64,000 nucleotides of DNA from a virus: IMG/VR virus record IMGVR_UViG_3300047368_000324, positions 1 through 64,000 of that record; one strand, given 5' to 3'. Under the pieces are notes generated by a model. It searched no databases. It was not told the origin of the DNA and saw only the letters and a program-made list of their open reading frames with translations. Made by a program: the position numbers and the translations under genes. Shown piece by piece: positions 1 to 19,171 of the stretch. Within the stretch, counting starts at the first letter, position 1. Each line of letters begins with the position of its first letter.

Positions 1-293
1 AGGGGCGATAGGTGCTTGTTTTATATATGATTTAATTAGAATGAAATGATAAAAATTAACGAAGATTATTCAGAGTATAAAGATCAGTCTGAATTAAAAC
101 AAATTGTAAATGATATAATTGATCTCATGGGAGATTATCCAAAGGGTAGTGTGCATGGCGGTTTAAGCCCTGTTGCTATTGAAAAGATAATTGCTTATTT
201 AATGTATTCAGAGAACAACCAATCTATAGATTTAAATATAACAAAAGCAGAAGATGAATACCACCTCAATTTAACTATAAAAAATAAACAATA

Positions 294-12431: not shown

Positions 12432-13109
12432 TGGATACAACTTTACAGAAAAACGAATTATTGAATTCAATTAGTAATGCTAATTCAGTACAAGTTGATG
12501 CTTCATGGGCAATTCTTAAATACAAGGAAATTGGTATTTATAGAAAAGTTGCTTGTTTAAGTTCCTTATTTCATGTAGAATTTGAGAGCGTATTAGATAC
12601 GCTCCCGAAGGATGAAGAGGGTAGGCTACTTGATTACAAGACAAGACACTTGATCCATGATGCACTACTTTTAGTATCATGAGTGAAGAATCAGAATTAT
12701 TTATTCACCAACTTCAATCAGAACTTACTCAAGTTATCGTAGAAATCGGAAAGCAATATACCGATATAACAAGTCAACAACAAATGGCAGACTATCTTGA
12801 GGTTTTAATTGAATCTTTAAAATATTTTCACGAAAGAGGAAATTACGGAAGAATGGCTTATGATATATATAAAGCAATAGATTTCTTGCCATCTGCATTT
12901 CCAATTAAATAACATGACTGAAGAGATAGAGAATATTATATATAAATATATACAGAATAAAGAAAAATTAAATACTATCGAAGAATTAAATACTTATTTA
13001 AATAAATTAAGTGATGATGATTTTGAAATTCTTGCTGAATATATTTTAAACAAACTAAAAGAAGATAATTCTTGACTTTCGGGGCTAAACAAAATAGAAT
13101 ACTTATATT

Positions 13110-13520
13110 ATGGGATTAGATCAACAAGCTTATAGCAAAAATTCAGAAGGAGAAGAACATGAAATCGCTTATTGGAGAAAGCACAATCGCCTTCAAGGGT
13201 GGATGGAAGAACTTTGGCAAGCCAAGGGTAGACCAAACTACGAACCGACTGATAATGGGGGTCTAGGAGACTTTAATTGCGTTAATCTTTATTTAAATGA
13301 GCAAGACCTTGATGACCTTGAGGATGCAGTTTGTGCGAAAGCGTTACCATCGTGCGGTGGATTCTTCTTTGGAGATGATTCGTTCTCTTGGGCAAACAAG
13401 CATGGAGAACATCATGAAGGTTATGATTATTTCTACAAGGAACTAGATATGGAATTCATAGAAAAAGCTAGAGATGAAATTAATAAAGGAAATAAAGTAT
13501 TCTATACTTGTTGGTGGTGA
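13110..13520 (+). CDS. conserved phage hypothetical protein
   Basis: MGLDQ...EIAYWRKHNRLQGWM...DFNC...YTCWW pattern. Confidence 0.7.
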   Translation: MGLDQQAYSKNSEGEEHEIAYWRKHNRLQGWMEELWQAKGRPNYEPTDNGGLGDFNCVNLYLNEQDLDDLEDAVCAKALPSCGGFFFGDDSFSWANKHGEHHEGYDYFYKELDMEFIEKARDEINKGNKVFYTCWW

Positions 13521-13967
13521 ATATGTATTCAATAGACATAATTGATATTGTTAATAATATATTTATCGGAACAGGTTTGGCGGTACTCTTAATATTTGTT
13601 TTATTTTTAGCATTTACTTATGATGACTAATAACAAAGAAAGAGAATTATTATTAAATATAAATAATATAGAGAACGAATTAAACATAATTGAAAAAGAA
13701 TTAGATTACATAATCGACAATGCTCCCGAAGATGGAGAGGTTGCAGAACTCTTAGAAATCGAGCGAGGTTACCTTTTGTCAGAACTTGGCATCGCCAAGG
13801 ATTCTTATATGTTACTTACTAAAGATAAATAATTACATTCTCTATACAATATATATATAAGCATAATATAAGAACAAATAACACACTTATATTATTACTT
13901 GATTTATTTTAAGTTAATGATTATTATTAATTTATATATAAACACTTGTAAATAAAGGGATTCCGTT

Positions 13968-14002
13968 GTGGGTCAAAGTGGGAGAAAGTGGGTCTGTATG
14001 GG
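13968..14002 (+). promoter_or_regulatory. four (G/A)TGGG boxes at exact 10-bp period, MraZ-binding-site-like
   Basis: GTGGG 13968, 13978, 13988 and ATGGG 13998 in an otherwise very AT-rich intergenic region. Confidence 0.55.
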
Positions 14003-14338
14003 CTACGCGACTTCAATATATATAATAACTAATATAAATATATTCAAATAACAAATGAAATTAAACAAAATAAACAAAATTCTAAATAATATAAATTCAA
14101 AATTGCTTGAAATTAAACTTAAAAATAATTTTAATAGTAAAAATATATCTAATAATTGCGAAATGAAAATTGATAATGAAAATAATTCAAATACAAAGCG
14201 AAATAAATACGGATTTCCAACTTTATTCAGATAATACTGCTCTTTTTAACATATTTTAATTGATTAATATATATTAATTGGTCGCGTTCGCAAGTTTTCG
14301 GTTGACAAGCAAGCGATATTGCCACATACTTATAACAT

Positions 14339-15688
14339 ATGAGCGAATTAACACGAAATATAAATGCTTTGCTAGATGAATATAATGATATTAAACAAGA
14401 TAAATCAATAACAGGCGATTCTATTGAAAATATAATTAGTGATATAAATAAATTAACTAATAATGGATTAAATGTTAATGATATATTCACAAATAACTAC
14501 TATGTTAACGATTATCAAGAGGATAAGCGTTGTGCGAGTGGCAAAATCTTCGGAGTAAAGCAATCATGATTGAATTAGAGACAAATAAACATATAGCACC
14601 AAAGACAGGGCAATATAAACTAGAAATAATTGATAAAACAATTGATGAAATTATATTAATTTATGAAAATAAAAATATAAATGATTTAATTGAAATAATG
14701 AATGGTTTTAGTCTTAATAAATATAGTAGAAGATTAACAGGTAGTGATATGTACTTGTGGGAGACTTAATATTGCATTATATATCAAGCAATAAACGAAA
14801 TTAAGATTGAATTTGAGCCAAATAACTTCAAATAAAGCTATTATGCCATATATACCAAGCATTTATGTCGATAAAACAGAAAAAAATCGACACATTAAAA
14901 AAAAGTGTTGACAAGAGCGACATATTTTGCGATACTTAAACCATGACACAATTACAAAGCACTTACAACACGATCCGCAAGCAACGCGACATTGCGGATG
15001 AGGTATCTAACTTGAGTTCGTACATGAGCGGAAACACAAGCGAGCTTGTGCAACACATAGGCTTTCTAGGAGATAAGATAGAAGACCAAGCACAAATGAC
15101 TAATGGATATTTAGATGATATAAGATCATCAATAGATAAGAATACAGAAGCATTACAATTAATAGCTAGAATTTTACAAAATAAATAATAAATTTAATAA
15201 CATTAATAAATATATAATTATGAGTATCGCAAAAAACGCAAGAGCATCAGAAGTAATGAGCAAAGTGCAGAATGGACACTACGCTAGAAATGGAAAGTTT
15301 GCAAACTTCGGTTCTATCCCCGAAGATAGCATATATTACCACACTTGGTTGGCACAGAAAGCCGAGCAGAAGCAAAAAGAAAAAATGGCTCAACGAGCAA
15401 TCAGATCGGGGGTTCGTAGTCATGCCTAAGTATGCAGTATTTGTTAAAATGGTTCACCTTGGCAAGTTTGTTATCGAGGCAGAAGACGAAGAGCACGCAA
15501 GGCTTATAATGGATTCGGGAGAAATTGCAGATGATGAATGTGTGGATATTCAGTCGGTAGAGAGCGAGATTACGACTATTGAACTTGCTGATAAACCACC
15601 ATTTGAGGGTTTTGAATCACCTAGAATACCCGAAGACTTTGAGACAATGACCACTGATGGAGAAATAATAGAAGATAATAAAGAATAA
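14339..15688 (+). CDS. five short hypothetical early genes (last probably starts at 15422, acidic)
   Basis: TTGACA promoters at 14302 and 14908; packed ORFs. Confidence 0.6.
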
Positions 15689-15789
15689 TATGGAAATAAT
15701 AGTTGCATCACTTTTAACTTGTTTTTTAAATAAAACAGTAATATATATTAAACCAAACCAAGAACAAATAATTTATACAGAAAATACTA

Positions 15790-15875
15790 TTGACAAATAA
15801 TCAAATATATAGTATTATTAATACATAACAATTGAGAAATAAACTCAATCAAATAAAATAAATTGATCTTTAACA
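15790..15875 (+). promoter_or_regulatory. sigma70 promoter, hairpin and boxA-like antitermination leader
   Basis: TTGACA 15790, 17 bp, TATTAT 15813; hairpin attgag/ctcaat 15831-15849; TGATCTTTAACA 15864-15875 versus rrn boxA TGCTCTTTAACA. Confidence 0.7.
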
Positions 15876-15882
15876 TTTTAAA

Positions 15883-16305
15883 TTTTGAGCATAGATCTCG
15901 CAAGCATTAAGTTGCTAAAAGCCAATTCTTGTAAGTCTCAATTCACTTTGGAACAATGAGTCGATAGCTGAGTATCGGACATTGACTCGTTCCATTCTAT
16001 TTGGAAGGGCTTATAATCCTTCCTGTGGGTGACTCGAAATAACCTGTCGTGAGCGGGTTAAGGTATGCAGATCCCTGTGGTAGGGACGGTAGAGTCCAAT
16101 CGGATGAGCCGAATGACAAATGCCAAGTCTAGTCTGTAGTTCGAAGTAGGTAATCCATGAACTGATGTTCACGCCGAAAAGTTGAAGGTATACAGTAGTC
16201 CTTCCCCACATTTATTTTTACAGGCAAATATGCGGAGGTTGTGTGTTGCCTCTAGTGACTATCATCGCCTGTTAGGTAACTCAATAAAAGCCTAACGCTC
16301 CAAAA
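15883..16305 (+). ncRNA. large structured non-coding RNA, family not recognised
   Basis: GC-richer, no credible ORF; ends pair (ttttgagc / gctccaaaa); helices ggaac..gagtcgat/attgactcgttcc, ggaaggg/tccttcc, tgtggg/cccaca, taacctg/cgggtta, tccct/aggga, tcgg/ccga, tgaac/gttca, gaagg/ccttc, caggc/gcctg, gttagg/cctaac; own promoter and terminator. Confidence 0.72.
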
Positions 16306-16335
16306 GCCCCCATCTTTCGAGGTGGGGGTTTTTTT
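16304..16335 (+). terminator. intrinsic terminator
   Basis: aagcccccatc-tttcga-ggtgggggtt followed by a T run. Confidence 0.85.
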
Positions 16336-16372
16336 GTTTGACAAGATCGACCACCTAGTCTACTATGGTAGC

Positions 16373-16884
16373 ATGAACACATTAAAAGACATACTATCAC
16401 ATTTCGGATACATTAACTCGGCTCAGCTCGCAGAGCTTAACGAACACTTTCCTCACATGAGGGTGGTTATTAAATGGGGCGGATTGCCTCGTGAACGAGT
16501 TCCTGTATGGCAAGCAATTGAAACCATCGAGAGAGTCGAACGAGAGAACCTTGACTATTGCAGAGAGGTATTTCTATCTGCCAAGGATTGCAACAATCTT
16601 CGTGAGGCTTTACATATAACCACTAATTAAAATATATTATGAAGTATCAAGCAGAACATAGTGCAGTTGAATTAGGTCTATTAGATATAGATGATAGAGT
16701 ATATGATAATGAACATAGAATGGATTATGCTCAAAAACAAGAAATACAAAGTAGAGTTGAATTAATTAGATTATTATTGAAAAGAAATTTACCTCTAAAA
16801 GCTAAACAACAATTAAAATTCTTAGATAGATATATTGATCAATGCTTATATAATGATTATATGGTGAATGACTATTTATCTTGA
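16373..16884 (+). CDS. two hypothetical proteins (16373-16630, 16639-16884)
   Basis: TTGACA at 16338 puts the start at ATG 16373 rather than GTG 16322. Confidence 0.6.
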
Positions 16885-16915
16885 CCTTTATCTTAATCTT
16901 AATTAGTATTATACT

Positions 16916-17491
16916 ATGATAAATCCAGCAGAAGTAACTAACTATAATCGAACTCAATCTGAATTACAGGAGTTTTTATTATTTTGTATTAATGTCGCAG
17001 GTAAAAAGTCTGCAGTCGAGGCTCCAAAACTAGAAGTCTTCCTCGAAAGAGCAAAAGATATCTCTGACACAGATTCTCCATTTGATGCTCTTCGTGCTCT
17101 AGAAAAAGCTGGCAGACTACAGGAGGTGCTTCATTGGGCGTCAATTAGCCCTTACAAGCAACGCTACAACAGCTACAAGGATGTTCTTGCTCTAGGAGAC
17201 CTACAAGCAGTTACTCTCGCCCGCCTGATGCAGGTGCGAGGTGTTGGACTTAAAACCGCACGATTCTTTCTATCTCACAGTCGCGAGGACTTTGATGAGC
17301 CCATGCTTGACACACATATTCTTCGCTTCCTTAGGGATCAGGGTTACAGAGACGCCCCAAAAAGTACCCCTCAAAACCAAGGAATCTACAACTATTACTC
17401 TAATGTATTTAAAATGTTTGCTCGTACACTTGGCAAATCAGTTACTGATTTGGATTTAGAAATCTGGAAGCAATACTCAAAAACAGAATAA
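16916..17491 (+). CDS. second HhH-GPD DNA glycosylase-like protein
   Basis: HhH LMQVRGVGLKTARFFL, PMLDTHILRFL, C-terminal DLDLEIW. Confidence 0.75.
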   Translation: MINPAEVTNYNRTQSELQEFLLFCINVAGKKSAVEAPKLEVFLERAKDISDTDSPFDALRALEKAGRLQEVLHWASISPYKQRYNSYKDVLALGDLQAVTLARLMQVRGVGLKTARFFLSHSREDFDEPMLDTHILRFLRDQGYRDAPKSTPQNQGIYNYYSNVFKMFARTLGKSVTDLDLEIWKQYSKTE

Positions 17492-17642
17492 ATTGGAACT
17501 ACTAATAATCATAACTATGGGTACAGTAATGGGCGTGAAGCTAGCATTCGAATCTTGGAATGACTAAAACGCCAAATACGTAAATGACAAATATGGAAAT
17601 ACCAAATAACCAAATAATATATATTCAGCAGAGAGCGCCGCC

Positions 17643-17721
17643 CAACACCCTGAACATCAACGACTTATGAAATTTTCGCCTAGTCTGAGAATCTCGTAAG
17701 TCTTTAAGAAGCAAGGATTTA
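17643..17721. repeat. arm-core-arm element, copy A (core CCTAGT 17679; left spacer 11 bp)
   Basis: caacaccctgaacatcaacgactta-tgaaattttcg-cctagt-ctgagaatctcg-taagtctttaagaagcaaggattta. Confidence 0.8.
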
Positions 17722-17777
17722 CAACAAAAGTAAAAAAAGTGTTGACAGCAAGCAGTCTGTAGGTTAGTATTATATAC

Positions 17778-18981
17778 ATGATTAATTACGATATACCAAA
17801 CTCAATCTCACAATTTCAATCGAAAGCTATGTTGGAATTTTCCCATCTTGATTTCAAGCCACATCGTCATGCTGACGGAGTTCAAGCTGTGCTTGAATTG
17901 GGTAATGACATCTCGATTTCTGTCGTTGCGAACAACGAAGGAGGTCAAGGGCTTTATGGTAATCTCAAGGAGGATCTTTACGAAGTTGCGTTTTTTTATA
18001 AAAATGATATGATTCCTCTTTCTCCTTCCGATGATGTTGTGGGATGGCAATCTCCTCAGCAGATTTCTTATCTAATGATGAAGGCTCAATCCGAGGGTAT
18101 TTATTGGGTGGATGAACTTCGAGAAGCAAAAAGAGAATATAGAAAAGAATTAGGGCTTGACAGCTGAGCACTATTAATCTAGTATTATATCATGACAACA
18201 GAAGAAGAATACAGACAAAGAGCAGAAACAGTTTTAAACATCGTTAACGGCAATCTTGCATGGTCAAATCCAAGTTCAACAGTTTGCCTTGACCAACATG
18301 AGCGTCATCCCGAAAAGTTCCCAAAGGGAAGTGCATTTCAATCGTTCGATGAATCTTTAGATGACATCATTCGAGACTTGACATCCTATAGAGATGAGAC
18401 TAGAATAGAATCATCTTTTCAATCAGCAGAACTATAACCAACACACACTATGTTAACAAACGAAAAACAAATTGCAGAGTTTAGACTCCGCACTCTCCAT
18501 AAAATGCTCAAGCTTGAACTTCTTGGAATGAAACGCAGAGGTCAATCGGCTTACGCTATCATAAAACAAGAAACAGGTTTTACAGGATCAAAGCAAAAAG
18601 TCTATGACAAACTTGATGACCTGCTCAACCCTCCTGCTCACGATGTGGAAATGGAAAAAGCAATTTATAATGCTTGACATTTAATTCAAACTATATTATA
18701 TTTATATCATGTTAGATTATATTGAAGCAAACTGCGAATTACCTTCGCTTGAAGACAAAGCCTCCTACGACCAAGAATCGGGAATGTGGGAATTATATTT
18801 CGAGGAGCTTTTGCCCTCTTGGTACAATCGGAGCGAAGGCGAGCATCCTGACCTCATCACTTTACATTTCGAGAGCGAACACGAAGCTCAAGAAATTCTT
18901 AATCAACAATCAACAATCCTCAACAAAAGGAATCAAGAAAATGAAGTTAGTTCAGAAAATCAAGAACCTGTTCTCTCCTAA
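17778..18981 (+). CDS. four hypothetical early genes
   Basis: TTGACA at 17742, 18157 and 18674, each 35-36 bp before an ATG. Confidence 0.7.
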
Positions 18982-19171
18982 GTATCAAGTCGTCTATCGC
19001 ACGCTTGACGGCAGAACAGAACGCTATACCATCAACAAACCATCATATGCTTATGAATTTGGCAACAATCAGGAGGGCAAGCAAATCGTTGGCTTCCGTT
19101 CTTATTGTCATAATCGCCACGGAGTGCGTTCATTCCGTTACGATAGAGTCGTAGCATTAGAAAAGGCATAA
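18941..19171 (+). CDS. stand-alone WYL-like domain protein
   Basis: VVYRTLDGRTERYTI...FRSYCHNRHGVRSFRYDRV fits WYL Y....G..t.R.i ... aYCh.R...R.FR.DRi; likely start ATG 18941. Confidence 0.6.
   Translation: MKLVQKIKNLFSPKYQVVYRTLDGRTERYTINKPSYAYEFGNNQEGKQIVGFRSYCHNRHGVRSFRYDRVVALEKA

Follow-up and report, generated by a model that had tools for sequence, protein, structure and literature searches.

ROOL and GOLLD are large bacterial and phage RNAs that have been reported as RNA-only multimeric cages. The manA RNA was described as a riboswitch candidate located in 5′ UTRs, with representatives in marine metagenomes, T4-like cyanophages and two gamma-proteobacteria (Weinberg et al., 2010; PMC2864571); its Rfam family, RF01745, is typed as 'Cis-reg', and since 2010 it has been a candidate riboswitch without a ligand. 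According to a cryo-EM preprint of July 2026 (bioRxiv 10.64898/2026.07.01.735769), other members of the family assemble in vitro into octamers, decamers and an icosahedral-like cage of 60 subunits, in which the building blocks are pentamers and the contacts kissing loops; the preprint favours a scaffold or self-assembly role for manA RNA and presents these RNA-only cages without biological context. For the leaders of rRNA operons, arranged as boxB–boxA–boxC, it is established that boxA recruits NusB/E and shields transcripts from Rho, the antitermination complex comprising NusB, NusE, NusA, NusG, SuhB and S4 (PMC12360218, PMC5725501). The boxA consensus derived for gamma-proteobacteria is GYTCTTTAANA (PMC5725501).

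Here we analysed the first 64 kb of the 76.6-kb IMG/VR virus record IMGVR_UViG_3300047368_000324 (hereafter the window), which contains a manA-class RNA in a setting that differs from the 5′-UTR annotation. We consider it probable that the unit at ~15825–16335 (~510 nt) is an independent manA-class RNA gene of an uncultured marine phage, whose transcription is aided by Nus factors and whose product is a trans-acting stable particle and not a switch. The RNA class is already known. The novelty with respect to the literature lies in the genetic setting, with its own promoter, boxA-like leader and terminator, and in the add-on domains, which together make an undescribed variant.

The phage and its manA core

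Proteins encoded in the window include UvdE, an ATP-dependent ligase, a Pol III alpha subunit, a ClpB-like ATPase and a large terminase. The large terminase shares no more than 26% identity with its counterpart in any cultured phage, and the window phage is therefore not a T4-like cyanophage. The sole genome match of the ClpB-like protein was a Saccharibacteria MAG at 30% identity, and a blastn search of the unit against cultured-phage records matched nothing. DNA near-identical to the window is present in seawater metagenomes from about a dozen studies. A 191-aa protein encoded at 16916–17491 matches phrog_11575 (function not known; E 4e-38) and, below threshold, the Ogg-HhH 8-oxoguanine glycosylase domain.

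Relatives of the unit were gathered by a conserved 15-mer scan over viral contigs followed by nhmmer, which yielded about 40 related loci with E values of 1e-33 to 1e-55 against the manA core of the window. Counts for the leader and promoter given below refer to 35 distinct related marine viral contigs (distinct upstream regions), those for the terminator to 33 distinct downstream regions and those for core covariation to 30 distinct cores of clade members. Coordinates are on the plus strand of the window unless stated otherwise.

The manA core occupies 16003–16214 and scored 73.6 bits, where the gathering score is 55.2 (E 1e-18 to 2e-20), with positions 1–192 of the 192-position RF01745 model aligned. 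It was the single Rfam family found across the whole window, and all 15 related loci tested with Rfam scored 64–88 bits. In the alignment to the model, the core begins with the manA 5′ hairpin (16003–16023) and is enclosed by a closing helix formed by GUGGG (16025–16029) and CCCAC (16205–16209); two inner manA helices are shortened or contain non-standard pairs in the present clade. The first-pass annotation, made from the letters of the window, had proposed a phage non-coding structured RNA gene with its own promoter, boxA-like leader and terminator, possibly of a new class. The gene itself and the internal domain that it drew as closed by TGTGGG/CCCACA were borne out, the latter as the closing helix of manA; since that domain is a full-length manA well above the gathering score, the RNA is not a new class.

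Covariation supports the helices of this manA-class core. When the Rfam structure is imposed on the 30 cores, 89.7% of cells are paired, and 16 of the 49 manA pairs have changes on both sides, a count reached by none of 500 shuffles and exceeding the 3–9 obtained with slid controls. RNAalifold independently gave double changes at 19 of 50 pairs. The first-pass description of ~420 nt of GC-richer, folded sequence agreed with the data, the GC content being 0.43–0.47 over 15900–16400 against 0.19–0.29 just upstream and the fold z-score −3.3 for 15825–16340. Two details of the first-pass annotation did not hold: the length, put at ~430 nt, is ~510 nt from promoter to terminator, and the pairing of 5′ and 3′ ends reduced, in the predicted fold, to the A-rich leader with the U run of the terminator, a pairing that is not conserved.

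The complementarity of two core loops, GUGGY and RCCA, holds in 31 of 35 sequences, with G opposite the variant C in all six cases; such covariation is blind to whether the contact is intra- or intermolecular. A possible pseudoknot had been marked in manA by Weinberg et al. (2010; PMC2864571). The loop complementarity would be consistent with multimerisation of the released RNA. A search of the window for tRNA and tmRNA found none. Sub-cut-off Rfam matches to rnk_pseudo, Yfr10 and RNAI (16227–16346) all fall on the terminator and were rejected as terminator look-alikes. Comparison of the RNA tail with the starts of early messages gave no complementarity (mean longest match 5.79 nt, against 5.82 nt for shuffled sequences).

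Promoter, leader and terminator of the unit

The sigma-70-type promoter at 15790–15818, TTGACA-17-TATTAT, agrees with the consensus at 11 of 12 positions and is the joint best within 13000–19000. Its predicted start lies near A15825, where there is no ATG. In contrast, each of 19 plus-strand promoters of the form TTGACA-16..18-NAnnnT between 485 and 22240 has an ATG 5–8 nt past the −10 box, a spacing which suggests that the early transcripts of this phage are leaderless mRNAs. The first-pass annotation had read this promoter, its missing ATG and its early-type sigma-70 surroundings correctly. A TTGAC[AT]-16..18-TAnnnT promoter precedes the boxA-like word in 35/35 related units.

Downstream of the start, a 6-bp hairpin (ATTGAG, loop AAAUAAA, CTCAAT; 15831–15849) takes a position like that of boxB in rrn leaders. 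It is present in 33 of the 35 related leaders, with compensatory stem variants TTAAG/CTTAA in four and TCGAG/CTCGA in one. The same letters could be read as a second promoter, TTGAGA-16-TAAAAT. We discarded this candidate, since its transcript would start within boxA and the compensatory variation of the stem is what would be expected of a hairpin, not of a −35 box. The hairpin is followed by the boxA-like word TGATCTTTAACA (15864–15875), which starts 45 nt past the −10 box and has one mismatch to the E. coli rrn boxA, so that both elements were found as first annotated. The order promoter–hairpin–boxA is retained in 33/35 relatives, and the word is kept in units that have no leader hairpin (L004, L008 and L042).

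Neither the window nor the 76.6-kb record as a whole contains a second match like TGATCTTTAACA. This single copy has no significance alone, with 0.73 matches expected by chance in the window and at least one found in 55 of 100 shuffles. Words that differ from GYTCTTTAANA at one position at most turn up at a rate of roughly one per 6 kb of strand (123 in 774,658 bases of AT-rich related loci, leader copies included). Because the match alone is expected by chance, the weight of the word comes only from its conserved sequence and position. It occurs once per manA locus and always on the manA strand, ending 13–16 nt before the core in 21 basal units and 63–220 nt before it in 14 insert-bearing units. 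G-TCTTT is invariant across 35/35 leaders. Measured against GYTCTTTAANA, a gamma-proteobacterial consensus that may not be that of the host, the window word agrees at 10 of 11 positions (A and not Y at position 2), and the 35 leaders have no mismatch in four cases, one in 23 and two in eight; most members carry A at position 2, as in the variant form GATCTTTAACA. Literature searches with the boxA variant strings returned nothing relevant, and those for manA and boxA together returned no paper connecting them.

These features bear on whether the word is a Nus site at all. It could instead mark where the RNA is processed, bind a phage protein or belong to the architecture of the mature RNA itself, within an RNA gene that is otherwise real. 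The shortness of the match, the prevalent A at position 2, the lack of a recognisable boxC and the five cyanophage manA loci that manage without such a word would all suit this reading. Against it speak the invariant G-TCTTT and the four leaders that match the gamma-proteobacterial consensus exactly, and the word stands where boxA stands in rrn operons, promoter-proximal, past a hairpin and upstream of a structured RNA that is long and untranslated. It also shows sequence conservation without covariation, as expected for a single strand bound by protein. We accordingly regard a non-Nus function of the word as rather unlikely, though deserving of consideration.

Eleven related leaders (L003, L041, L057, L119, L069, L074, L054, L048, L038, L098 and L061) contain a 2–3-nt insertion in the hairpin loop that co-occurs with an insertion just before boxA (11/11, against 0/17). 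The paired insertions are complementary (GGAU/AUCC, AGAU/AUCU, GAGGC/GCCUC, GGGC/GCCC and AGCU/AGCU), which suggests that they may form a leader pseudoknot. The window's own leader is without these insertions.

At its other end the unit is closed by an intrinsic terminator at 16302–16335, with a UUCG-loop stem of 14 pairs, six of them G–C (16302–16333), and a T run, in keeping with the strong terminator first noted there. An intrinsic terminator follows the core in 32/33 downstream regions, with energies from −9.5 to −31 kcal/mol. The linker between core and terminator is variable (24–206 nt), terminator stem sequences differ among loci, and no conserved alternative pairing between core and terminator was found in related loci. 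The next promoter, TTGACA-17-TACTAT (16338–16366), lies directly after the T run and drives a leaderless 85-aa gene, whose ATG at 16373 is 6 nt past the −10 box and whose stop is at 16630. In 25 of the 33 downstream regions, the next TTGAC hexamer likewise starts within ~3 nt of the terminator T run. The 85-aa protein family carries a KWGG-PRE motif, and the protein had no match in Pfam, PHROG or Atlas. Members at 40–87% identity lie downstream in 26 of 35 contexts, and the following 900 nt yielded none in the remaining nine.

The arrangement at this end weighs on the established view of manA, under which the unit would be a cis-regulatory leader or riboswitch in which a ligand or condition controls read-through of the terminator into the 85-aa gene. 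Such a role accords with the Rfam type and the riboswitch proposal of 2010 (PMC2864571), with the frequent association of unit and 85-aa family, and with cyanophage P-SSM2, where a gene starts 16 nt past manA with no terminator between them. In the present clade, however, the downstream gene has a consensus promoter of its own and an ATG near +1. No expression platform is visible, because the linker and terminator sequences are unconserved and lie outside the core, and accessory domains have been inserted between core and terminator with the unit undisturbed. The nine contexts in which no 85-aa gene was found in the 900 nt examined argue in the same direction, as does cyanophage P-TIM68, in which the gene downstream of manA is convergent, a position that sits poorly with a 5′-UTR role even for canonical manA. 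We therefore hold regulation of the 85-aa gene by the unit to be improbable. Since a terminator closes the unit and the next gene is served by a promoter of its own, the unit is not a 5′ UTR; most likely, it is separately transcribed as a stable RNA and is not a switch for its neighbour. Since the 85-aa gene follows the unit in so many contexts, a functional link between the two, or some read-through, is still conceivable.

Contigs from RNA libraries of two studies are identical to parts of the unit (15915–16186 and 15764–15992), these being low-depth assemblies that may include DNA; they leave parts of the unit uncovered and carry no transcript ends, strand or level. Several apparent joints in such contigs were dismissed as relatives that lack the 5′ inserts or differ in them.

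Accessory domains and a recurrent ~55-nt module

The window copy carries three accessory domains, which add ~190 nt; two precede the core and one follows it, all of them outside its closing helix. They are lineage-specific. The 3′ domain (16220–16295) is common to L109 and L114 and is not in other relatives. It consists of two hairpins, ACAGGC...GCCTGT (16220–16272) and TAGG...CCTA (16273–16294). Comparison by eye showed that both stems vary among the three sequences in a compensatory manner (GGC/GCC to AGC/GCU; UUAGG/CCUAA to CAAAGG/CCUUUG) and that the loops are invariant. On the 5′ side, the hairpin GGAAC...GTTCC with an inner hairpin (15950–15993) is common only to L013, at the same position, and is not present in the 21 basal units.

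The other 5′ domain, a module of ~55 nt closed by TTGAG/CTCAA (15885–15941), recurs in other contigs. It takes the equivalent position in L119, L120 and L123, and it is found outside any manA gene, in intergenic sequence, in six contigs (L115:313–381, L117:2838–2905, L122:1983–2050, L116:2076–2144 on the minus strand, L121:2220–2287 and L125:5617–5685). Closing stems of the copies outside manA include GGG/CCC, GAGAGG/CCTCTC, CTAGG/CCTAG and ACAAGG/CCTTGT, and double changes occur at 6 of 15 predicted pairs of the module. It had no match in Rfam at E ≤ 0.1, and neither the window nor 53 loci yielded further copies when scanned with a covariance model built from it. The module thus looks like an uncatalogued, portable RNA element. 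In L121 (2080–2170) and L125 (5690–5749), a conserved stretch starting GGGGTTCAGGTGTAAGCGATTCCCA adjoins the module, on opposite sides in the two contigs; this stretch may be another structured RNA.

A model for the unit and its place among known systems

Taking the unit as a Nus-aided RNA gene, host RNA polymerase would initiate at its promoter early in infection. By analogy with antitermination in rRNA operons and in lambda (PMC12360218, PMC5725501), the nascent boxA-like word would recruit NusB/NusE (S10) together with other Nus factors, and the Nus-bound complex would protect the long, untranslated and highly folded transcript from Rho. It would also assist co-transcriptional folding, which would go on until release at the intrinsic terminator. 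Once free, the RNA would act in trans as a stable particle and not as a switch on the next gene, probably as a homo-oligomer held by loop–loop contacts like those that the preprint reports for manA RNAs in vitro. It can further be imagined that boxA is kept on the mature RNA, so that a manA assembly displays NusB/S10 sites, soaks up host Nus factors and shuts down host rRNA synthesis, with the swappable modules as cargo adaptors; this extension strikes us as a long shot. The chance that the real gene is the 66-aa antisense ORF at 16011–16211 is negligible, for although 30/30 homologues have a stop-free antisense frame of 41–70 codons, they show no coding signal, with no third-position excess (of 67 columns each, 33, 40 and 31 vary at the first, second and third codon position) and with single-base indels scattered among them, and base-pair covariation together with the Rfam match explains the conservation.

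The preferred reading, a separately transcribed manA gene, has consequences for the family. A large marine phage clade carries manA as a discrete, terminator-bounded gene with an rRNA-style leader, to which peripheral domains have been added or exchanged, and this organisation gives in-genome support for the view of manA as a stable particle and not a switch. The recurrent ~55-nt module would itself count as a small RNA element, one not yet catalogued.

Compared with RF01745, the window core has the same helices and the conserved blocks GUGACU..GAA, the CUGAUG loop and GGUAUACAGUARUCC. The cyanophage manA loci examined, from P-SSM2 (L107) and from P-SSM7, P-HM2, S-SSM5 and P-TIM68 (L128–L131), share with it a marine phage origin and a sigma-70-type promoter upstream. 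In these five cyanophages, however, the promoter abuts the first hairpin or first base of the manA motif, whereas a leader of ~40 nt with hairpin and boxA-like word precedes the core in the window clade. No boxA-like word with up to two mismatches was found within 350 nt 5′ of the five cyanophage loci; the putative boxA leader is thus a feature of the present clade and not of the manA family. Further differences are the divergent terminase of the window phage, which sets it apart from the T4-like cyanophages that carry manA, and the three accessory domains, which distinguish the window copy from catalogued manA. The 5′-UTR position, which is a feature of the annotation and not of the RNA fold, is not shared by the window unit, and the terminator and next promoter that stand in its place are conserved in the clade.

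The succession of promoter, hairpin, boxA-like word and long untranslated structured RNA parallels that of rrn leaders, and agreement with the gamma-proteobacterial boxA consensus extends from 10/11 positions in the window to 11/11 in four relatives. Unlike in rrn leaders, the sequence downstream is a phage RNA of ~0.5 kb and not rRNA, and no boxC was recognised. Finally, although the window unit is much smaller than ROOL and GOLLD and has no Rfam sequence or model match to either, it resembles both in being a stand-alone, ornate, phage-borne RNA that possibly multimerises.
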